Assembly: GCA_036845085.1 (NCBI GenBank)
Contig: DAIUEN010000023.1
Span: 1 to 9,047, forward strand
Direction: 5' to 3'
Origin: Candidatus Nanopusillus sp.
GTDB lineage: Archaea > Nanobdellota > Nanobdellia > Nanobdellales > Nanobdellaceae
Length of the DNA: 9,047 bases
The first letter of the stretch is position 1. Every line of letters starts with the position of its first letter. The notes beneath the pieces were generated by a model, which was given only the letters and a program-made list of their open reading frames with translations, was not told the origin of the DNA and ran no database searches. Below, piece by piece: positions 1 through 9,047 of the stretch. The position numbers and the translations under genes are program-made.

Positions 1-57
1 ACAGGTAATTCGGCTGAAATTGATGTTGAAGTATATCCTTTGATTGAACAAAAATGA
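1..57 (+). CDS. 3' end of an upstream CDS (partial, hypothetical protein); probable first visible cistron of the ATGA-coupled operon
   Basis: Frame 1 is open from the window edge (...TGNSAEIDVEVYPLIEQK*). Its TGA at 55-57 shares the tetranucleotide ATGA (54-57) with the next start codon, the same junction used at the three following gene boundaries. Confidence 0.4.
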   Translation, partial: TGNSAEIDVEVYPLIEQK

Positions 58-1127
58 ACGAAAGTATATTAGAAGCTATTTTAGCAACAATTTTTCTATT
101 TCTAGTTATATTAATAGCTATTAATATACCTTATTTAGCAGCTAAACTATTTGGGGTAAATAATCCTTTATTATTACTAGAAACTTCGGCATTTCTAACA
201 TATTCTACATCCAACATAGGAAATATGACAAAACTAGTTTATATCCAGTCACAACCAGTTTTAGGGGCTGAATTCAGAATATCACCTCCGGAAAAATCTC
301 AAGGTTTTCAAGGTTATTATTTAATGTACGGATACTGCATTACTAAAGATCTATGGCAAGAGCTTTTATCTTCGACAATAGATGCGGCTATATCTACTTT
401 TCTACCGTTAAAAGTTACTGGCCAAACCGGAAAAGATATAATTATAAACTTATTTAAGTATAATTACAGACAACTATTTACTGAAACAAAATTTTTAGTT
501 GCTACAGATTTATCTTTAACTTTTTCCCAAAATTATTTATATTATTACGAACAAAAGGCTTCAGATGCCTTAACAAGATCTTTAGTTGATACATTTAGTC
601 CAGAATCTTTACTGCAAACAGCAGCTATGACTACTGTTACTACAACACAAACAATTGTAACTTCTGTATTGAGAGGTATTGGTATGTTTGGTGGAATTGG
701 AGGTATGTTATTAGCTTTTGGTGCAAATTTTGCAATAGGGAGTAGTTTAGTATTATATGATTATCTCACATCTAGAAATGACGAATTTAAAGGATGCTAT
801 ATGCCAGAATTCTTTAAAAATGAAAATCCAAACATCTATTTTAATTATATTCCAATTTATACTTTTCCAATATATTTTAATGAAAATTTCTATATAATAG
901 ATGGATGTAACGAGAAAAAAGCAGAATTTATATGCGATATAAATAAGGGAAATACTCCAATAAATTCAGAAAAAGATAAACATATTATGAGAATATCTTT
1001 AGGATTTTATGATGAAAAATCTAATAAATACTATTACCCAACATATTTAATATTAAAAAAAGAAAAAGATTCTAGTGAAAGAGAAAATGGAAAAATAATT
1101 GTAGGATTTATAATGAATTCAAGATGA
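54..1127 (+). CDS. Hypothetical integral membrane protein, 357 aa. N-terminal TM helix plus an internal Thr-rich/glycine-zipper hydrophobic segment and a Cys-containing C-terminal domain.
   Basis: Long ORF in a genome where stop codons are cheap. ATGA overlaps at both ends. N-terminus is MNES + ILEAILATIFLFLVILIAINIPYLAA. A second hydrophobic region lies at aa ~188-235 (TAAMTTVTTTQTIVTSVL-R-GIGMFGGIGGMLLAFGANFAIGSSLVLY). There are 4 Cys (95, 248, 285, 294). I recognise no family. Confidence 0.75.
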   Translation: MNESILEAILATIFLFLVILIAINIPYLAAKLFGVNNPLLLLETSAFLTYSTSNIGNMTKLVYIQSQPVLGAEFRISPPEKSQGFQGYYLMYGYCITKDLWQELLSSTIDAAISTFLPLKVTGQTGKDIIINLFKYNYRQLFTETKFLVATDLSLTFSQNYLYYYEQKASDALTRSLVDTFSPESLLQTAAMTTVTTTQTIVTSVLRGIGMFGGIGGMLLAFGANFAIGSSLVLYDYLTSRNDEFKGCYMPEFFKNENPNIYFNYIPIYTFPIYFNENFYIIDGCNEKKAEFICDINKGNTPINSEKDKHIMRISLGFYDEKSNKYYYPTYLILKKEKDSSERENGKIIVGFIMNSR

Positions 1128-1957
1128 GATCCGTATCTATAAAAGATATTATAGAATATATTTCAGCTTCAGTAATAATCATAATAGAGTTATTTATAAT
1201 TTTATCTTTCTATCAATTAGTAGTAGTTCAAGCACAATCGCTAAAAAGTTATCAAATCTTTGTACAAAGTTTATATGCAGATAGATTACACTATTGTACA
1301 TATTCAGCTACTGGAAATCCATACTATTTATTTTATTTGCCAGATAATAAAACAATATACGAAAATAAGGAAAAAATAGATAAATGCTATTCTTCTCTAA
1401 AAGGAAATTTTGCTGTAACAGTTTCTAATGAATCTACTGATAAAAAAGTTGAAGTAGAGTTTTGGTCTTTAGAATCTGAAATAAGACCATTTTTCTTTTT
1501 ACTTAGTCTAAATAATATCTCATACTATTATTTTTATACTCCTATAAACATAGAATATAACTCATTAGAATATGGAGCACGATATGTTCATTATATTATA
1601 AATAATACATCTTTGAATATATTTGAGAGAAATAAAAATTTATCTGAAAAGCTCATTACAGAAATATTTGAGATATTAAAGAAATATAAAGAAAATATTA
1701 CTGAAAGTATTTTTAATTTTGAGAAGTTATTATCATCTATGGAAAATATATATATAGAAGGATTTACACAATATAATTTGTATACTTTACAAAGTATAGA
1801 AGCCCTTCCAGTTTTTGTTACTAATTATGAAAATAATCATTTAATGTTTCTATATCCTTTAGGAATAGGGAATATATACAATGCTAAGAAAATGAAGATG
1901 GAATGTGATGTATTATCGGGAAGTGTTAAGAATTGTAAATTAGAAGAAATAAGATGA
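1124..1957 (+). CDS. Hypothetical N-terminally anchored extracytoplasmic protein, 277 aa, Cys-paired and sequon-rich
   Basis: ATGA overlaps at 1124-1127 and 1954-1957. N-terminus is MRSVSIKD + IIEYISASVIIIIELFIILSFYQLVVV. Cys at 58, 88, 261 and 271. Seven N-x-S/T matches (NKT, NES, NIS, NNT/NTS, NLS, NIT). I recognise no family. Confidence 0.75.
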   Translation: MRSVSIKDIIEYISASVIIIIELFIILSFYQLVVVQAQSLKSYQIFVQSLYADRLHYCTYSATGNPYYLFYLPDNKTIYENKEKIDKCYSSLKGNFAVTVSNESTDKKVEVEFWSLESEIRPFFFLLSLNNISYYYFYTPINIEYNSLEYGARYVHYIINNTSLNIFERNKNLSEKLITEIFEILKKYKENITESIFNFEKLLSSMENIYIEGFTQYNLYTLQSIEALPVFVTNYENNHLMFLYPLGIGNIYNAKKMKMECDVLSGSVKNCKLEEIR

Positions 1958-2454
1958 AGGGACAACTATCATTTTATTTAGCTGTAGGATTTTCTGCATT
2001 ATTTATAGTTTTTATGATATTAGTATTTCTATCCTACATAGTATATCCTTCTGGATATATGAGATCAATTTCATCACTACAGCAAATTGGATATGAATAT
2101 AAAATAGGAAATTCTTTTTTGTCGTCTTCTATTTATGTAGATAATTATTATATAGTGGCTATAGATCTATTAGCGGGATCTTATTTAAATGAAGATAAAT
2201 ATGTAAAAGAAAAAATTAAGATCCTTATTAATAATACAACAGTACCACATTATATTAATAATAGTGTTATTTTTGGTATAAATTTGGGAAATGATACAGT
2301 AGGTTTATGTGTTAATAGATTATTCATTTCTTATAAAATAAGTGAAGATAAGGAAATTCAAATATGCCCACCAGTTATGATATATCCTCCAATATTTGTT
2401 GCAGTAAGGGCTGATATTAGTGGAACATACCATGAAGTACATCCAGTAGTATGA
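1954..2454 (+). CDS. Hypothetical small surface protein, 166 aa, with a class III (type IV pilin-like) signal-peptide-like N-terminus
   Basis: N-terminus MKG-QLSFYLAVGFSALFIVFMILVFLSYIV has a basic residue plus Gly directly before a ~25-aa hydrophobic helix, with Gln at the putative +1. There are 2 Cys (119, 138) and 4 sequon matches (NNT/NTT, NNS, NDT). ATGA overlaps on both sides. The size fits a pilin or FlaF/FlaG-type subunit. Confidence 0.7.
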   Translation: MKGQLSFYLAVGFSALFIVFMILVFLSYIVYPSGYMRSISSLQQIGYEYKIGNSFLSSSIYVDNYYIVAIDLLAGSYLNEDKYVKEKIKILINNTTVPHYINNSVIFGINLGNDTVGLCVNRLFISYKISEDKEIQICPPVMIYPPIFVAVRADISGTYHEVHPVV

Positions 2455-3680
2455 AGTCATCATATGCTCCTCTTTTATTAGTAATAGGATCTATTATATT
2501 AACTGTAGCTGGAATATATTATATTACTACGTTTAATGATTTAGTATATAAAAGTGCTCAGTATTTAGCTGAAGATTATGCAAATACTCATATATCTTAT
2601 TATTATATCTTTGTATATCAGCCTTTTGTAATAAGATATAATTTTTTAAATTATGTAGTAACAAATTTATTTTCCAAAGATGAATATAATTTAGAAAGTA
2701 TTTATAGGTCAGATTTAATATCCGGCTATCCAAAATGCAAAAAAAATTATATTATTTATTTATATGATTATGATAATGGAAAAGTAACTTATAAACCTTG
2801 TATTCCTCCGTTGCCAACGGATAATTATTTATCGAAAATTAATGGAATAAATTCTTTATTAAACAAAATTAATCAAGAATTGAATAATATGAATAATCTA
2901 ATTGAAGAAGATGGTATACCTATAAAAAATAAAGGATGCAAATATTCTTTAGGTGTATTTGAATGTGATTACGAATATAATTTCCAAAGAGATATATACT
3001 TCAGTAGATATTTTAACTTAAATGTAGAATATCATTTAATAGAGAATATATTATATTATAATTACTTATTGGGTCAAATATATAACAATACTTTTGCACT
3101 CTTTAATCTTTCTTTATTAAATCTTTCATTTTTGCTAGATAACTATGAAAAATATGAAATTATGGAAAATGGTAATTATATAAAAGTAAAGTTATCTCCA
3201 AAGTCTAATTCTCTATTTCTATTGAATATATATTCAAAAAATAAAATATTTAATGACAATATTAACATTGATATAATTTTACCTTGTTCTTATTTAGAGA
3301 CATATTTAGGTTCATGTAATTTATCTTTAGCAAATAAAGATAATTATGTATCCTTATCTGAGGACATAGAAAAATGCTTAGAAGGTCCTTATGGTGAAAT
3401 TAATCAGACTATAAAAAATATTTTCTTCACGGAAGTAAAAGAATATTATTTAATTGAAAAAAATATAACTTTAACAGATTATAAAGAAGATACAATAAAA
3501 TATGCAAGATTGTCTGATGGTGGATTGCCAGAAATAGAATTATATGATTATTATTTATTATTTACTCTATATAACTGTACAATAGGTTTAGATTCTAATG
3601 GAAATGAAGTAGTATCTTTAGAATATAAAGATTTTAGTTTATTGTTTGAGAATATTCCTTTACTTAAAATTAGAAAATAA
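2451..3680 (+). CDS. Hypothetical N-terminally anchored extracytoplasmic protein, 409 aa, with 8 Cys and sequon-rich; last cistron of the operon
   Basis: ATGA overlap at 2451-2454. N-terminus is MKSSYA + PLLLVIGSIILTVAGIYYITTF. Cys at 96, 117, 163, 172, 279, 289, 309 and 376. Seven N-x-S/T sequons (NNT, NLS x3, NQT, NIT, NCT). The 3' end overlaps the convergent taw3 by 21 nt. I recognise no family. Confidence 0.75.
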   Translation: MKSSYAPLLLVIGSIILTVAGIYYITTFNDLVYKSAQYLAEDYANTHISYYYIFVYQPFVIRYNFLNYVVTNLFSKDEYNLESIYRSDLISGYPKCKKNYIIYLYDYDNGKVTYKPCIPPLPTDNYLSKINGINSLLNKINQELNNMNNLIEEDGIPIKNKGCKYSLGVFECDYEYNFQRDIYFSRYFNLNVEYHLIENILYYNYLLGQIYNNTFALFNLSLLNLSFLLDNYEKYEIMENGNYIKVKLSPKSNSLFLLNIYSKNKIFNDNINIDIILPCSYLETYLGSCNLSLANKDNYVSLSEDIEKCLEGPYGEINQTIKNIFFTEVKEYYLIEKNITLTDYKEDTIKYARLSDGGLPEIELYDYYLLFTLYNCTIGLDSNGNEVVSLEYKDFSLLFENIPLLKIRK

Positions 3681-4250
3681 TAAATCATAAAATCTTCTTG
3701 TATTTTCCATTACTCTAATTAATTTTTTATTAGCTTCTTCTACTAATTCTCTAAAATATTCCTCACTTATTAATAATTTTTTATTTTTACTTATAATTGT
3801 TTCTATTTTTTCATTTCCTATAACCTCCAACATTACTCTTTCTTCTTTTATTAAAAAAATTCCAGAATGTTTAAAACCAGCTTTTCTTGCTATATCTAAC
3901 ATAACAATTGCCGAATTTATATCTTTAGCTGCTATGTGTAATATTAAAGGTTCTTGTTTGAAATATATTTTTTCTTTATATTTATCATAGACTTCTAATA
4001 ATTTTTGATATATTTCTTCAAACTTTACTGGATAATGCGATTTAAATAAAAACTTAGCATCTTTTTTCTTTCCAGATTCTGGTATTTTTATCAATATTAT
4101 CCTACCAGCACAAGAAGATGTTGTAAAATAGTTATCCAAACTGTTAATATAATTTAACAAATAATATATTGGTTCGTCTGCTTCTCCACTTTCCATAGCT
4201 TTTTTTAGTCTTTCAACATGATATCTTTTTAATTTATCGAATGTAATCAT
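3660..4250 (-). CDS. taw3: tRNA wyosine-derivative methyltransferase Taw3 (TYW3 family; tRNA(Phe) 4-demethylwyosine-derivative N4-methyltransferase)
   Basis: At 196 aa the length is typical of archaeal TYW3. It has the N-terminal F-D-K-x-K opening, an (A/V)DEPI..LL..IN....Y(F/Y)TTSSC(A/S)GRI block (here ADEPIYYLLNYINSLDNYFTTSSCAGRI), and the later EPLILHI..........A...GFKHSG pattern characteristic of the family. Confidence 0.85.
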   Translation of the reverse strand: MITFDKLKRYHVERLKKAMESGEADEPIYYLLNYINSLDNYFTTSSCAGRIILIKIPESGKKKDAKFLFKSHYPVKFEEIYQKLLEVYDKYKEKIYFKQEPLILHIAAKDINSAIVMLDIARKAGFKHSGIFLIKEERVMLEVIGNEKIETIISKNKKLLISEEYFRELVEEANKKLIRVMENTRRFYDLLFSNFK

Positions 4251-4255
4251 AATAA

Positions 4256-4738
4256 ATGGATAAGAATAAAATTTTGATAAATGTAATATTTTTTATAATT
4301 GTTTTTCCTGTAGCAATTTTATTATATTATTCATATAAAACTTTTTTAAAAGAAAAAGAAAGTGTAAATCCTTTAAATATATATAATCTGCAAGTATATA
4401 GTATAGTTTCTGATAATAATGAGCTGAAAATATACATATACAATCCGAATAATTATTCTGTTGGAATAACATTTACATATTTAGGTCTTATCAATTCTTA
4501 CAAAACTTCTTCAATAGTTACATCTGGAAGTTTTATTGGAAGTATATATGAAATAAAACCAAATTCTACTATAGAATTATCTTATAATTATATTGTAGAT
4601 TTTAATACGAAGTCGGTAATAGAACAATGGAAAAAATTGGGCGGTAGTTTAATGATAACTTTATATTATCAAGATATATATGATAAATCTATAATAGGAA
4701 TAATAAATTATGAAGTAAAAAATATAAAAACTAAGTAA
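4256..4738 (+). CDS. Hypothetical membrane-anchored protein, 160 aa; tentative LEA_2/WHy-like (NDR1/HIN1-type) beta-sandwich ectodomain
   Basis: N-terminus is MDKNK + ILINVIFFIIVFPVAILLYY. It is followed by alternating beta-like segments including ELKIYIYNPNNYSVGITFTY ... IKPNSTIELSYNYIVDF, which resembles the 'l.l.v.NPN..~i' core and later 'a.~.t.v.v' strand of LEA_2/WHy domains. No Cys. The domain assignment is from memory of the motif, not from a search. Confidence 0.6.
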   Translation: MDKNKILINVIFFIIVFPVAILLYYSYKTFLKEKESVNPLNIYNLQVYSIVSDNNELKIYIYNPNNYSVGITFTYLGLINSYKTSSIVTSGSFIGSIYEIKPNSTIELSYNYIVDFNTKSVIEQWKKLGGSLMITLYYQDIYDKSIIGIINYEVKNIKTK

Positions 4739-5921
4739 CTTTGTCTAAGTCGCTTAGAGTATAGATCTTTACTTTATCGCTAGATTTCTGTACAGTTCCT
4801 AAGCATATTATATACTTTATATTTGTCTGTTTTTCGATTTCTTCTAGCATTTCTCTAGTTAATATACCATCCATAACCAAATAAGTTACATTTGGATTTT
4901 TTAATATATTAATATTTAGTTTGTCTATTGGTAATTTGTTTATTATTGAAAAATTACTATCTAATAATATTGCTTGTTCTGTTCTGAAAATATTTTCCAT
5001 TATTGGCTTTAATTTTAATAGTACATTGTCTTTTATCTTTTTTTCTTCTCTTAATCTAAATATATCTTCAATACTTCCTTCCAGTTTTTCATAATAACTT
5101 TTAACTTGGCTAAACTCTATTCTATTCTTCAAGGCTGTCATTATTTCTTTTCTCGATAGTTCTTCAACTTCTTTTCCTGGTTCTGGTCTAGCAACATAAT
5201 CAATTTCTACGTTATTTAACATGGCTTCTTTTATAAGTAGTTCTCCAGCTCTATCTCCGTCGAAAAATACAGTAACAATTTTCTTTTTAGATAGTTCAAC
5301 TATGGTTTTTGGTATATTTAATCCGTTTAATGCAATTACATTAGTTATTCCATATTTTAATAGATTTAATACATCTGCTCTTCCTTCTACTAATATTATT
5401 TCTTCAGATCTATCAATATCAGGACCTGCTGGTAATTTTTCTGGTCCATATTCAATTAAGGTTTTCATTTTTTGAGAATATTCTAAATATAATAAAAGTT
5501 CTTTAGTGTCTGGTAGTTCTTCATTTATTAATCTATTTAGCAATTCTTTTGCTCTTTCTAATATATACTGTACTTTAGTTTTTCTAACATCCTCTATTTT
5601 TGATACTTTAATCGTTGCATGTGCAGGTCCTACTCTATTTACTGTTTCTAATGCAGCTCCTATCAATGTAGTTTCAAATCTATTCAAACTTGTTGGTATT
5701 ATTATTTCTCCTATTGTTTTGTTTTCTTCATGCCTTAATTCTACATTTATTCTCCCAATTTTTCCAGATCTTTGTAATTCTCTAAGATCCAATTCTGGCC
5801 CCAATAGTCCTTCTGTTTGTCCAAATATAGCTCCTATTACATCCGGTTTTTCTACTACACCATCAACATATATTGTAGCATATATTATGTACTTTACGAA
5901 TGGAGGTGCTACCTTCGCCAT
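4731..5921 (-). CDS. dnaG: Archaeal DnaG (TOPRIM-domain primase-like protein, exosome-associated)
   Basis: Conserved archaeal DnaG N-terminal domain (YIIYATIYVDGVVEKPDVIGAIFGQTEGLLG...LRELQRSGKIGRI). TOPRIM core with catalytic Glu in ILVEGRADVLNL (E179, nt 5385-5387) and the DxD motif FFDGDRAGE (D221/D223). Conserved C-terminal LVMDGILT....E block. 396 aa. Confidence 0.93.
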   Translation of the reverse strand: MAKVAPPFVKYIIYATIYVDGVVEKPDVIGAIFGQTEGLLGPELDLRELQRSGKIGRINVELRHEENKTIGEIIIPTSLNRFETTLIGAALETVNRVGPAHATIKVSKIEDVRKTKVQYILERAKELLNRLINEELPDTKELLLYLEYSQKMKTLIEYGPEKLPAGPDIDRSEEIILVEGRADVLNLLKYGITNVIALNGLNIPKTIVELSKKKIVTVFFDGDRAGELLIKEAMLNNVEIDYVARPEPGKEVEELSRKEIMTALKNRIEFSQVKSYYEKLEGSIEDIFRLREEKKIKDNVLLKLKPIMENIFRTEQAILLDSNFSIINKLPIDKLNINILKNPNVTYLVMDGILTREMLEEIEKQTNIKYIICLGTVQKSSDKVKIYTLSDLDKVT

Positions 5922-5956
5922 TAATAAATATTCTTGAAAAATTATTTAGATTTATA

Positions 5957-6145
5957 CTATTCTATTATTTCCATAGTTTTATTGGAAATATTCTTTACAG
6001 TTTCATTTGTAAAGTTAGATAATTTTTGTGAAGCTCCAGATCCTCCTTTTTCTAAGTTAAGTACAATATAAACAGAAACTATTAATATTATTATCGCAAT
6101 AATAAGAAGTATTATTGTTGACATTGAAACATCTGATTTTTTCAT
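5957..6145 (-). CDS. Hypothetical 62-aa membrane-anchored mini-protein with a sequon-dense C-terminal tail (possible small pilin-like or glycosylated surface peptide)
   Basis: MKKSDVSMS + TIILLIIAIIILIVSVYIVL (strong TM helix), then a flexible GGSGAS linker, then NFT, NET, NIS and NKT within the last 20 residues. It is co-directional with dnaG and 35 nt upstream of it. A TATA-like box sits ~27 nt upstream of its ATG. Small size limits confidence. Confidence 0.5.
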   Translation of the reverse strand: MKKSDVSMSTIILLIIAIIILIVSVYIVLNLEKGGSGASQKLSNFTNETVKNISNKTMEIIE

Positions 6146-6150
6146 AATGT

Positions 6151-6159
6151 ATTATAAAA
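6151..6159 (+). promoter_or_regulatory. Candidate TATA box for a leaderless or near-leaderless argS transcript
   Basis: ATTATAAAA is centred ~26 nt upstream of the argS ATG (6181). No Shine-Dalgarno-like GGAGG/GGTGA lies in the spacer. TATA-like strings are cheap in this AT-rich DNA, so confidence is low. Confidence 0.35.
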
Positions 6160-6168
6160 CTTTTCTTA

Positions 6169-6176
6169 TTTTTAAA
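6169..6176 (-). promoter_or_regulatory. Candidate TATA box for the 62-aa gene (and possibly dnaG), opposed to the argS box
   Basis: The minus strand reads TTTAAAAA, centred ~27 nt upstream of the minus-strand ATG (6145-6143). Confidence 0.3.
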
Positions 6177-6180
6177 TATT

Positions 6181-8109
6181 ATGTGGTTACTGAAAAAATA
6201 TTTAAATGATCTGGATTTAGAATATTCAGAGCCCCCTAGAGGAATAAAATATGATATATCCATAAAATTGTTTAAAGAACTAAAAAAAGGGAAAAAAGCC
6301 GAAGAATTAGTAAATGAAATAATAAGTAGAATAAAAGATTATGTATTAGAATATAAATTTATTAATGGATATCTTAATTTAAAATTAGATTTTAGAAAAA
6401 TATTAGATGAAATTGAGAATTTGTTTATATTTGAAAAAAAAGATAAAGTAATTTATATAGAACATACTTCTGCAAATCCAAATAAACAATTACATATAGG
6501 ACATTTAAGAAATTTTATTCTGGGAGATTCTATATATAGATTATATGAATCTCTAAACTATAAGACATATGTTATAAATTATATAGACGATACTGGAGCG
6601 CAAGTTTCAGATGTAGTCTTAGCAATATATTTATTAAAATTTCCAGAAGATCCAAAAGAATTTGAAATAAATAAAGTTAAAGAAAATATAATCAATTTTT
6701 TAAAGAAAGAAAGTATATACAAAGAAGAATATGATAAAAAAATATTAGAAATTATAAAAGAAAGAACTGATGCAATTAGGAAACTATATGGATATGATGT
6801 TCCAAAAAAATATGATCATTATATTGGGGATTTTATTTATGTTATAGTTAATAAATTATATGATCTAATTCCAGATTTAAAAAGATACAAGTCTTTCATA
6901 AATGATAAAATAGAAAAGGGAGACAATGAAATATATGACTTAGCTAAGAGAATTGTAGATAATGTATTAGAATCTCAATTAGAAACCTTATGGAAATTTA
7001 ATGTGTATTACGACTTATTTGTAAGAGAATCAGATATAATAAAATATAATATATTTGATAAAGCCTTTGAGATTTTAAAAGAAAAGAATTTAATAAAATA
7101 TGAAACAGAAGGAGAGAAAAAAGGATGTTGGGTTATTGATTTAGATAGATGGGATGAATTCAAAAACTATGAAGATAAAAAGAAAGTTTTAATAAGGTCT
7201 GATGGAACATCTGTATACTTAGCTAAAGATATAGCATATGCTTTCTGGAAGTTAGGAATTATTAAAGATAGCATAAAATTTAAAGAATACAAACTACAGC
7301 CAAATTCTAAATATATTTATGAAATAAATATAAATGGAAACTTTATTCCAGAAGTTTGTGATATATCTATAAATGTTATAGGGTTTGAACAAACATATCT
7401 TCAATTAATAATAAAAAAAATAATAGAAGAATTAAATGTAAATAAAAAATATATTCACTATTCTTACGGACTAGTTATGTTATCTAAGAATACTGCAAAA
7501 ATATTTGGTATAGATGAAGATATTGTAAGAATGTCTGGAAGGAAAGGTATAAATATAAATGTAGATGATTTATATGAAAAATTATATCAAAAAGTTTATA
7601 ATTTGATGAAAGAAAGATTAAAAGATCTTGATGAAAAAAAATTAGAAGAATTAAGTCACAAGGTAACAATTTCTATTATATCATATGAAATATTAAAATA
7701 TTCTAGAAACAGTTTAATAGTATTTGATTTTGATAAAATATTAAATTTCGAAGAAGGAAATGGAATATATCTTTTATATACTTATGCAAGAATAAATTCT
7801 CTTTTAAAAAAAGCTCCAAAAATTGAGAAAATGTATTTTACAGAATTAAATGATTTAGAAAAGAAATTAATAGTAAAAATATTACAGTTTAAAGATGTAT
7901 TATACGATGTAGAAAAATCTTTAGATATAAACGACCTAGTTAAATATACAATAGATCTTGTAAAATCTTTTAATGAATTTTACCAAAGTGTTCCAATTAT
8001 TAGTGAATTAGATAAATATCCTCACAGATTACTTTTGGTGTTATTGACTAAGAAGGTATTAGAGAAAATCTTTTATATATTAAAGATAGAGCCTGTAGAA
8101 GTAATATAA
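6181..8109 (+). CDS. argS: Arginine--tRNA ligase (arginyl-tRNA synthetase, class I)
   Basis: Block EHTSANPNKQLHIGHLRN with HIGH at nt 6493-6504. YIDDTGAQ follows the Rossmann start. MSGRKG (nt 7531-7548) sits at the KMSKS-equivalent position typical of ArgRS (MSTRxG). C-terminal DALR-type anticodon-binding helices (YLLYTYARINSLLKK...). 642 aa. Confidence 0.95.
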   Translation: MWLLKKYLNDLDLEYSEPPRGIKYDISIKLFKELKKGKKAEELVNEIISRIKDYVLEYKFINGYLNLKLDFRKILDEIENLFIFEKKDKVIYIEHTSANPNKQLHIGHLRNFILGDSIYRLYESLNYKTYVINYIDDTGAQVSDVVLAIYLLKFPEDPKEFEINKVKENIINFLKKESIYKEEYDKKILEIIKERTDAIRKLYGYDVPKKYDHYIGDFIYVIVNKLYDLIPDLKRYKSFINDKIEKGDNEIYDLAKRIVDNVLESQLETLWKFNVYYDLFVRESDIIKYNIFDKAFEILKEKNLIKYETEGEKKGCWVIDLDRWDEFKNYEDKKKVLIRSDGTSVYLAKDIAYAFWKLGIIKDSIKFKEYKLQPNSKYIYEININGNFIPEVCDISINVIGFEQTYLQLIIKKIIEELNVNKKYIHYSYGLVMLSKNTAKIFGIDEDIVRMSGRKGININVDDLYEKLYQKVYNLMKERLKDLDEKKLEELSHKVTISIISYEILKYSRNSLIVFDFDKILNFEEGNGIYLLYTYARINSLLKKAPKIEKMYFTELNDLEKKLIVKILQFKDVLYDVEKSLDINDLVKYTIDLVKSFNEFYQSVPIISELDKYPHRLLLVLLTKKVLEKIFYILKIEPVEVI

Positions 8110-8119
8110 TTTATAAAAA
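8110..8119 (+). promoter_or_regulatory. Candidate TATA box for rps10
   Basis: TTTATAAAAA lies immediately after the argS stop, centred ~28 nt upstream of ATG 8143 (a second ATG is at 8146). No SD-like motif. Confidence 0.4.
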
Positions 8120-8142
8120 TTAATAACAACAAAATATTTACA

Positions 8143-8448
8143 ATGATGGTAAGAATTAAAATGTGGAGTACTAATTTACAAGCACTAAATTCATTCACAA
8201 ATGAAATATTAAAAATTGTAGAACAATTAGGGATAGAAAAAAAAGGACCTATATATTTACCAACAAAAGTTATGAGAGTACCTACTATGAGAACATTTGG
8301 TAGGAGAGGTACTAAAATATACGAAACATATCAAGCAAGACTTTATAGGAGATTTATTGATGTAGCATATGACGAAAGATTTTTTAAGAGTTTCTTAAGA
8401 CTTCAGATACCACCAAACATAAATCTATTAATAAAAATTTTAAAATAA
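8143..8448 (+). CDS. rps10: 30S ribosomal protein uS10 (S10)
   Basis: 101 aa. RIK(M/L)....L......I......G....GPI.LPTK......R.......T...(F/Y)..R...R.ID pattern (here VRIKMWSTNLQALNSFTNEILKIVEQLGIEKKGPIYLPTKVMRVPTMR...YQARLYRRFIDV). TTTATAAAAA box lies ~28 nt upstream. Confidence 0.9.
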   Translation: MMVRIKMWSTNLQALNSFTNEILKIVEQLGIEKKGPIYLPTKVMRVPTMRTFGRRGTKIYETYQARLYRRFIDVAYDERFFKSFLRLQIPPNINLLIKILK

Positions 8449-8455
8449 GCTATAA

Positions 8456-8465
8456 TTTATAAATA
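8456..8465 (+). promoter_or_regulatory. Candidate TATA box for nop5
   Basis: TTTATAAATA is centred ~25 nt upstream of ATG 8485, in the 36-nt rps10-nop5 spacer. Confidence 0.4.
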
Positions 8466-8484
8466 ATTTTTTTATTTAAATTAT

Positions 8485-9047
8485 ATGCAGTATGTGCTAA
8501 TAAGATATGATTATGTATACTATTTTGATGAGAATCTTAATCTAATAAAAAAAGAAAAAGCAAATTTTAGTTATGATGAAATAAAAAGTTTGTTTAATGG
8601 AGAAATAGATAAAATTAGGGAAAAATTCAAGGATTATAAAATATTAGGATTTGATGTTAAAGACACAAACTTAATAAGAAAAGCTTTAGATTACATTGAA
8701 ATAAAGAATGATCTAGATTTGTTTTTATTAGTATTGAAGAAATCTATATCTGATAAAATTTCAAAAGACTTAATAGTAATACAGTCGATAGAATTTTTAG
8801 ATGATTTAGATAAGATAATTAATTTATTTATGGAGAGATTTAGAGAGTGGTATGAGCTATATTTTCCAGAAATATCAAAAAAGTATGGAGATCACGAAAA
8901 ATTTGTTAAAATAATATTAAATAAAAAAAGAGAAGAGTTAATGGAAGAATATAATATACAGGAGACTATGGGTGGAAAAATATTTGATGAAAATGATTAT
9001 AAGATTCTAAATGAGATTGCAGAAAAAATAGATAGCCTATATAAATT
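8485..9047 (+). CDS. nop5: Nop5 (Nop56/58) C/D box sRNP core protein, 5' partial (continues past the window end)
   Basis: Not in the supplied ORF track because no stop is reached. I translated it by hand from ATG 8485. MQYVLIRYDYVYYFDENLNLI... (N-terminal fibrillarin-binding domain) is followed by LIVIQSIEFLDDLDKIINLFMERFREWYELYFPEISKKYGDHEKFVKII...ETMGGKIFDENDYKILNEIAEKIDSLYK. This matches the hallmark ...AI..LDD.DK.IN....RLREWY.LHFPEL... and ...SMGA.....D...I..LA..I..LY segment of archaeal Nop5. Confidence 0.85.
   Translation, partial: MQYVLIRYDYVYYFDENLNLIKKEKANFSYDEIKSLFNGEIDKIREKFKDYKILGFDVKDTNLIRKALDYIEIKNDLDLFLLVLKKSISDKISKDLIVIQSIEFLDDLDKIINLFMERFREWYELYFPEISKKYGDHEKFVKIILNKKREELMEEYNIQETMGGKIFDENDYKILNEIAEKIDSLYK

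Follow-up and report, generated by a model that had tools for sequence, protein, structure and literature searches.

A conserved, lineage-specific operon of fast-evolving, N-terminally anchored proteins, possibly pilin-like, in nanoarchaea of the Nanopusillaceae and Nanobdellaceae

What do the genes at the left end of a nanoarchaeal contig encode, and do their products build one structure at the cell surface? The window, which is the whole stretch of DNA analyzed, comprised 9,047 nt of Candidatus Nanopusillus sp. (assembly GCA_036845085.1, contig DAIUEN010000023.1, positions 1–9,047, forward). The guanine-plus-cytosine (G+C) content of the window DNA was 20–32%, which is very AT-rich, and the DNA was archaeal. 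An earlier note on this DNA had described bases 1–3680 as a five-cistron operon of orphan proteins anchored in the membrane at their N-termini, and had proposed a pilin-like extracellular assembly. We found that bases 1–3680 belong to an operon of nine genes, G1–G9, and cover its distal part, with the last four cistrons and the end of G5. The operon was vertically inherited and is specific to nanoarchaea of the Nanopusillaceae and Nanobdellaceae. It is a conserved, lineage-specific, coupled operon of fast-evolving, N-anchored proteins that share only their N-terminal module.

Direct reading of the sequence gave the tetranucleotide ATGA at 54–57, 1124–1127, 1954–1957 and 2451–2454. Frame 1 contained no stop between base 1 and the TGA at 55–57, and it encoded TGNSAEIDVEVYPLIEQK up to that codon. 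The four ATGA junctions, the partial upstream open reading frame (ORF) and the complete products of 357, 277, 166 and 409 aa described in the earlier note were all confirmed. These four products, P1–P4, belonged to families G6–G9, respectively, and a fifth product, P5, belonged to family G10 (Table 1). In the relatives, every one of 19 loci had a −4 overlap between G6 and G7, and 15 of 18 had one between G7 and G8; from G2 to G8, neighbouring genes overlapped or lay no more than 6 nt apart in all loci. The coupling is real, yet ordinary for compact operons.

The relatives were not visible to every search. When P1 and P3 were used as queries in word-index homology searches, they recovered only themselves, and a search with the concatenated G6–G9 alignment gave no matches, probably because low-complexity words swamped the candidates. 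A genome scan based solely on DnaG of the window returned nothing, since its fixed 8-residue patterns differ in the relatives. A full HMMER scan with P4 retrieved four distant homologues (E 1e-19 to 1e-6, 30–38% identity), and their contigs included two complete genomes, those of Nanobdellota archaeon YN1 (AP031373) and Nanobdella aerobiophila MJ1 (AP019769, with the cluster at 36–44 kb). The G7 alignment, scanned against species-representative genomes, gave 12 loci, all of them in Nanopusillaceae/Nanobdellaceae and including Nanopusillus acidilobi 7A and two Nanobsidianus stetteri genomes; the G5 alignment added 16 further loci from metagenomes, for a total of about 28. All loci were annotated with hidden Markov models (HMMs) of the families, and gene order was judged as far as each contig extended. 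It was identical in the 12 genome and 16 metagenome loci, in the order A60-A780, B, G1–G9, TYW3, G10 and DnaG. This strict conservation in relatives agreed with the operon proposed earlier. Its count of five cistrons had to be raised to nine, the window edge cutting inside G5, and the term orphan gave way to lineage-restricted, the former having reflected the low sensitivity of single-sequence search. The operon measured about 6–7 kb. Together with the A60/A780 pair, B and G10, the conserved block spanned roughly 11–12 kb, well over 1% of a genome of 0.6–0.77 Mb.

In N. acidilobi, the cluster corresponds to Nps_00205 to Nps_00255 and G10 to Nps_00265; in Nst1, the orthologous genes run from Nst1_035 to Nst1_047, with G10 as Nst1_049. 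These genes are annotated as uncharacterized, most of them with one predicted transmembrane domain, and the only arCOGs in the cluster are those of A780 (arCOG10265) and B (arCOG10353).

In close genome pairs, the ratio of nonsynonymous to synonymous substitution rates (dN/dS) was 0.14–0.61 for the cluster genes against 0.06–0.12 for the adjacent TYW3 and DnaG, and the cluster genes evolved 3–9 times faster than these flanking genes. Identity between the window and its relatives was 26–34% for G6–G9, 59–65% for TYW3 and 74–77% for DnaG. Since dN/dS was below 1, the cluster genes are real genes under purifying selection, and the pattern agrees with relaxed or diversifying selection on surface proteins. 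These data bear on a reading in which there is no cellular surface system at all, and the cluster consists instead of spurious ORFs, of transporter subunits that face the cytoplasm, or of a virus or mobile element that has integrated. The low G+C content eases long chance ORFs and the first two word-index searches were without homologues; even so, this reading is extremely improbable and already effectively refuted, as dN/dS lay well below 1, Cys residues and sequons were conserved, no transporter family was matched, and the products had one transmembrane helix each, with at most a weaker second segment in P1. A viral or mobile origin was rejected: no relatives of the cluster were found in IMG/VR or PHROGs, and the housekeeping flanks were fixed in about 28 loci.

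How are the products anchored? Each of P1–P4 began with a polar leader of 4–8 residues followed by one hydrophobic stretch (Kyte-Doolittle 19-residue mean 2.2–3.0), so that the leader and helix reported earlier for every complete product held up in hydropathy. The same design was found in all N-anchored families (A60, A780 and G1–G10), with leaders of 2–8 residues and long hydrophobic helices, which measured roughly 22–30 residues in the G1–G9 products. No cleavable Sec signal peptide of the signal peptidase I type (an n-region, an h-region of 7–15 residues, then a c-region whose −3 and −1 residues are small) was recognized by eye, the hydrophobic stretches being about 22–35 residues long and without a c-region. 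In an AlphaFold model of P3 from the single sequence, a helix spanned residues 2–30, the mean predicted local distance difference test score (pLDDT) was 85–96 over the first 30 residues, and beta strands of low confidence followed. The AlphaFold model of P4, built from a five-sequence alignment, had a helix at 6–73. A Foldseek search with this low-confidence P4 model returned noise and nothing meaningful.

In P1–P4, Tyr made up 7–12% and Asn 6–11% of the residues; Tyr, Asn, Ser and Thr were generally above the window housekeeping proteins, and Lys plus Arg amounted to 7–9% vs. 15–19% in TYW3, DnaG, ArgRS and S10. Cys residues were even in number (4, 4, 2 and 8) and most were conserved across orthologues. 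The earlier description as Tyr/Asn-rich and Cys-paired was accurate, and that as sequon-rich was accurate for two of the four proteins: relative to shuffled sequences, N-glycosylation sequons were enriched in P2 (p = 0.035) and P3 (p = 0.022), not enriched in P4 (p = 0.18), and below the shuffle mean in P1. The conserved sequons and Cys residues sat in the C-terminal parts of A780, G1, G5, G7, G8 and G9, and the tails of G3, G4 and A60 carried one or two sequon sites each, kept in at least 70% of orthologues. Because of these conserved sequons and Cys pairs, the bulk of most of the proteins is predicted to lie outside the cell, which argues for an N-in/C-out topology with putatively glycosylated and disulfide-stabilized ectodomains in most families. 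Nothing suggested a cytoplasmic bulk for P2–P4, in line with the surface location that the earlier note had proposed for all four; P1 was ambiguous. G6 kept one conserved sequon and G2 none, and the topology of P1 (G6) and of G2 is therefore uncertain, in the case of P1 also because of a second, weaker hydrophobic segment and the purely acidic leader of G6.

The individual proteins shared this plan and differed in detail. P1 had the acidic leader MNESILEA before its helix, four conserved Cys and 28–32% identity to its orthologues; its second segment, rich in Gly and Ala, lay at residues 216–235, and a second, weaker Gly/Ala-rich hydrophobic segment was a family feature of both G1 and G6. P2 began with MRSVSIKDIIEYI, in which K7, D8, E11 and Y12 were invariant, and it carried nine conserved sequon sites and four conserved Cys. 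The leader of P3 was MKG|QLS with an invariant Q4, and its single conserved Cys pair comprised C119 and C138, the latter within a CPP motif. In P4, the leader was MKS|SYAP, with S4 and A6 invariant in the G9 family, and there were eight Cys and six conserved sequon sites. P4 was about 80–100 aa shorter than most orthologues (409 vs. 487–515 aa) and the C-terminal Cys-rich module was missing. The G9 orthologue in the metagenome-assembled genome KM4331-16 was just 275 aa long. The G5 family contained a conserved IF[DE] motif in or beside the helix.

The relationship among the families lay in their N-termini. In an all-against-all hhalign comparison of 13 families, similarity was confined to the first ~40 residues (probabilities of 97% for A60–G4, 90% for A60–G3, 78% for G2–G5 and 74% for G3–G4; the few matches beyond this region reached no more than 10%), and between the window and its relatives the first 35 residues of G6, G7 and G9 were 42–51% identical against 25–28% for the remainder of each protein, although transmembrane composition can inflate both the hhalign similarity and the N-terminal identity, which tells against a pilin interpretation. 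Conservation of the first 35 residues clearly exceeded that of the remaining sequence in G1, G5, G6, G7 and G9, the exception being G8. The architecture is thus pilin-like, in that the paralogues have a conserved N-terminal helix in common and C-terminal domains that are unrelated. The type IV pilin superfamily is defined by such a combination of a short leader, a conserved N-terminal helix and unrelated C-terminal domains. That the proteins are a type IV pilin-like subunit set, assembled by an unassigned ATPase/platform module as a fibre or pseudopilus, is a reading that we hold with not quite even confidence. In such a system, three tiny subunits (G2–G4, 43–63 aa) and six large ones (G1 and G5–G9) would be made in fixed ratios through translational coupling, inserted N-in/C-out and bundled via their conserved N-terminal helices. 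A non-archaellar FlaI/VirB11-type ATPase and a TadC-type platform, encoded elsewhere, would extrude a short fibre or pseudopilus, and the large, fast-evolving ectodomains (G5–G9; P1–P4 here) would form the exposed, host-contacting part.

Candidate machinery of this kind is present in these organisms. The gene table of N. acidilobi lists arCOG01817 four times, arCOG01818 once, the TadC arCOG01808 six times and arCOG01814 twice, with only two archaellins; Nst1 has three extra FlaI paralogues (Podar et al., PMC3655853), and comparative genomics found pilus-type ATPases in these genomes without identified pilins. Membership of the archaellum was not indicated, as no archaellin or FlaF/FlaG Pfam match was found in the operon proteins, and N. 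acidilobi carries its arl genes at other places in the genome (Nps_00925–00940, 01995 and 02010). The leaders gave a mixed picture. A FlaFind-type rule (a short and mostly basic leader with [KR(DE)][G/A(S)] at its end, followed at once by ~20 hydrophobic residues) was fitted by P3 (KG|QL) and P1 (EA|IL). Many leaders ended in [KR/DE][G/S/T/A], such as [KR][TSG]|S in the G9 family and KT|Q or KG|Q in the G3 family, and most families had G, S, T or A at −1.

Of the pilin-like extracellular assembly proposed earlier, the coupled and N-anchored operon, the predicted export of most products and the pilin-like architecture stood; a pilin profile, a consistent G, A or S at −1 and a known prepilin peptidase were lacking. 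Several observations weighed against the pilin interpretation. P4 (KS|SY) and P2 (VS|IK) departed from the leader rule, the G8 family had I, F, N, G or S at −1, no basic or acidic residue stood at −2 in G7, and the G6 leader was purely acidic. Pilin, archaellin, class III and N-methylation profiles (Pfam Class_IIIsignal/DUF361, Pilin_N, Arch_flagellin, N_methyl, Flp_Fap and TadE) were unmatched at E up to 1–5 by the window proteins, YN1 G1–G5, A60, A780, B and 14 G8 members. When family profiles (G3, A60/G4, G5, G7, G8 and G9) were compared with PDB chains, no pilin or archaellin was found, and the small-protein profile hit generic single transmembrane peptides only. P1–P4 also had no family match in Pfam, NCBIfam or PHROGs and no PDB-sequence match, so that the earlier failure to recognize a family was upheld and no unrelated family emerged either; for G3, A60/G4 and G5 these databases likewise gave nothing. 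An assembly ATPase or platform gene was found neither in the window, as noted before, nor within ±10 kb in the YN1, MJ1 and JGI (Joint Genome Institute) loci. The overall pLDDT of 43 for P3 and 42 for P4 made the AlphaFold models too poor to test a pilin fold, in which a long alpha1 helix packs onto a beta-sheet domain. No A24 prepilin peptidase was recognized in two nanoarchaea (PMC4858521), and the N. acidilobi gene table lists arCOG02298 zero times and has no "prepilin" entry. The other ATPase/TadC genes adjoin their own genes for single-predicted-transmembrane proteins, which could be their pilins. Finally, Nps_00205–00255 were all undetected in the N. acidilobi shotgun proteome, in which the neighbouring DnaG and FBPase were detected.

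Much of this evidence is shared by, or turns toward, an envelope complex that is anchored in the membrane and forms no type IV filament. Its helices would be uncleaved signal anchors holding glycoproteins in fixed ratios in the membrane, for example as outer parts of the cone-type attachment organelle (an extracellular portal, collar or sheath) or as an S-layer-associated scaffold. We regard this alternative as only a little less probable than the pilin reading. It draws on the same anchoring, exported ectodomains, coupling and synteny as the pilin interpretation, and it accommodates the lack of a known prepilin peptidase, the non-canonical −1 residues, the second hydrophobic segment in G1 and G6, and the absence of a linked ATPase and of a pilin profile match. 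The proteins of the attachment organelle are, moreover, explicitly stated to be unknown (PMC11420986). What it explains less well is the N-terminus itself, as the first 35 residues were the best-conserved part of G5, G6, G7 and G9, and invariant polar residues occurred there in G7, G8 and G9. Plain signal anchors normally keep hydrophobicity, not sequence. That eleven paralogous families have only the N-terminal module in common is the pilin pattern and speaks against an envelope complex as well.

The products could also be surface proteins that act independently, such as adhesins or enzymes, and share a transcript but no joint structure. The ectodomains of different families were unrelated, no interface between products could be predicted and no proteomic co-detection was found, all of which this explanation accommodates. 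However, order and tight junctions were strictly kept across lineages at about 30% identity, and three products of 43–63 aa are too small for acting alone. We consider this explanation quite improbable.

Epd pili of Methanococcus maripaludis combine a short glycosylated major pilin with several minor pilins. If the operon encodes a pilin-like set, its nearest counterparts would be the type IV pilin sets of archaea, among them the pilin operons listed in PMC4858521 (Makarova et al. 2016); these are alike in having tandem genes that share only a leader and an N-terminal helix, unrelated glycosylated C-terminal domains, tiny and large subunits, and fast evolution. The operon differs from them in having no profile match, a −1 residue that is not consistently G/A, leaders of 2–8 residues that are sometimes acidic, no recognised prepilin peptidase in the genome and no ATPase/TadC in the locus. 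The accepted "dark-matter" pilins of other DPANN archaea, which were inferred from signal peptides and context (Makarova, Wolf and Koonin 2019, PMC6393860, Fig. 2A), likewise have no detectable similarity to known pilins; however, their loci contain ATPase, TadC and surface-protein markers, whereas the operon is without these and lies between housekeeping genes. Among bacterial systems, fimU-pilVWXE and gspGHIJK offer an analogy of working, with coupled one-helix subunits that form a tip or priming complex, and the Flp pilins of Tad/Flp systems (roughly 50 aa, with TadE/TadF pseudopilins) match G2–G4 in size. As in bacterial minor-pilin, pseudopilin and Tad systems, an acidic residue close to the beginning of the helix is invariant in G5 and G7. 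Unlike these systems, the operon has no N-methylation or G|XXXXEY motif in register, belongs to another domain of life and shows no sequence relationship to them.

A further comparison concerns structures already seen in the same organisms. Cryo-electron tomography of cultivated Nanobdellales (MJ1, YN1, YN4 and N. acidilobi) revealed a cone/portal/filament organelle, a 15-nm appendage and nanotubes (PMC11104419, PMC11420986, bioRxiv 10.64898/2026.06.04.730037), and both MJ1 and YN1 carry the operon. The papers describe the proteins of these structures, among them those of the attachment organelle, and the identity of the second, 15-nm appendage as unknown. The searched main texts on the surfaces of N. 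aerobiophila, YN1 and YN4 name other surface proteins and archaellin-like genes, never this cluster. The cone faces the cytoplasm, whereas most operon proteins, known here from their genes, are predicted to be extracellular. It is rather unlikely that G1–G9 and A60/A780 form a pilin-like fibre that is made without a prepilin peptidase and builds the filament, sheath or portal of the attachment organelle, the 15-nm appendage or the nanotubes. If true, these would be the first genes for a structure that bridges the ectosymbionts to their hosts, and the divergence of the ectodomains would reflect host specificity. In any case, because its order is strictly conserved and because it is lineage-specific, mostly predicted to be exported and 3–9 times faster evolving than its flanks, the operon is a concrete candidate gene set for one surface structure still without genes in these archaea. 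If its products are pilins, the type IV filament superfamily would be extended to leaders of 2–8 residues, partly acidic ones, in organisms without a known prepilin peptidase.

Table 1. Features of the window and of the orthologous loci. An empty cell means that no value is given.
Feature	Position	Strand	Size	Basis or remark
G5 homologue, 3' end	1..57	+	last 18 codons + stop	open frame; position and C-terminal pattern match G5 of relatives
P1 (G6 family)	54..1127	+	357 aa	ORF; same position in all orthologue loci
P2 (G7 family)	1124..1957	+	277 aa	ORF; alignments; −4 overlap with G6
P3 (G8 family)	1954..2454	+	166 aa	ORF; alignments
P4 (G9 family)	2451..3680	+	409 aa	ORF; full HMMER search and alignments
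TYW3	3660-4250	-		Pfam E = 1.5e-48; convergent to P4
P5 (G10 family), N-anchored	4256..4738	+	160 aa	synteny wherever the locus reaches that far; no Pfam match
DnaG counterpart, Toprim-domain protein	4731-5921	-		equals gene annotated DnaG primase in N. acidilobi
A60/G4-type paralogue	5957..6145	-	62 aa	HMM and profile comparison
ArgRS, ribosomal protein S10	right of 62-aa ORF			named by eye and from N. acidilobi gene order
Nop56/58, N-terminal part, off right end	about 8460-9047	+		by-eye look of ...FMERFREWYELYFPE...
A60 (relatives)			about 62 aa	ATGA-coupled to A780
A780 (relatives)	upstream of G1–G9		778-879 aa	N-anchored
B (relatives)	between A780 and G1	opposite		
G1 (relatives)			about 400 aa	
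G2 (relatives)			42-48 aa	
G3 (relatives)			60-63 aa	
G4 (relatives)			49-53 aa	
G5 (relatives)			273-315 aa	N-terminal helix; 6 conserved Cys
G6–G9 (relatives)				= P1–P4; followed by convergent TYW3, then G10, then DnaG

At its right end the operon abutted a convergent tRNA-modification gene, as described earlier; this gene was TYW3, and its overlap with P4 was 21 nt (3660–3680). G10 and DnaG also overlapped convergently, by 8 nt (4731–4738), and TYW3 and G10 were divergent with 5 nt between them; the genome is extremely compact. The G10 orthologues were 152–157 aa long, shared 44–52% identity, and always lay between TYW3 and DnaG where the locus reached that far. With a dN/dS of 0.13–0.16, G10 was more constrained than the operon genes. 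G10/P5 may belong to the same system as the operon.

Left of position 1, contigs of the window lineage extended G5 by up to 86 nt, and a metagenome scan with the G5 profile found only other lineages. All four independent assemblies with P1 broke off within about 86 nt of one another, in the 3' part of the G5 homologue, and this recurrent assembly break may come from strain variation or from a repeat in G5. The window sequence was also present in the JGI metagenomes 3300009596 and 3300022545 and in ENA (European Nucleotide Archive) ERZ27245618, whereas the species-representative genomes retrieved by the scans did not include its lineage. Its DnaG was about equally distant (74–77%) from those of Nanopusillus, Nanobsidianus, Nanobdella and YN1, which suggests that the window represents a separate, uncultured genus-level lineage.

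The Nanopusillus/Nanobsidianus loci contained an extra protein of 413 aa between B and G1 (in the N. acidilobi locus at 4909–6150 on the minus strand), which was absent from YN1 and MJ1. It had a classical Sec signal peptide, MKNKFKAIAIIFILSLIMLGTKIIAQ|T, a Ser/Thr-rich stalk and a C-terminal anchor, in contrast with the uncleavable-looking N-termini of the operon products.

The 62-aa ORF of the window had a transmembrane helix and a sequon-rich tail, was 30–37% identical to other A60 members, and matched the A60 HMM at E = 3.7e-33, a value inflated by the presence of the sequence in the A60 seed; it also cross-matched G4 and G1. It stood isolated between DnaG and ArgRS, whereas A60 is coupled to a protein of 780–880 aa in the relatives. 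The window lineage is rearranged compared with N. acidilobi, in which FBPase follows DnaG and ArgRS-S10 lie about ten genes before the cluster. The Nop56/58-like ORF at the right end agreed with the ArgRS-S10-Nop56 order of N. acidilobi (Nps_00155–00165).

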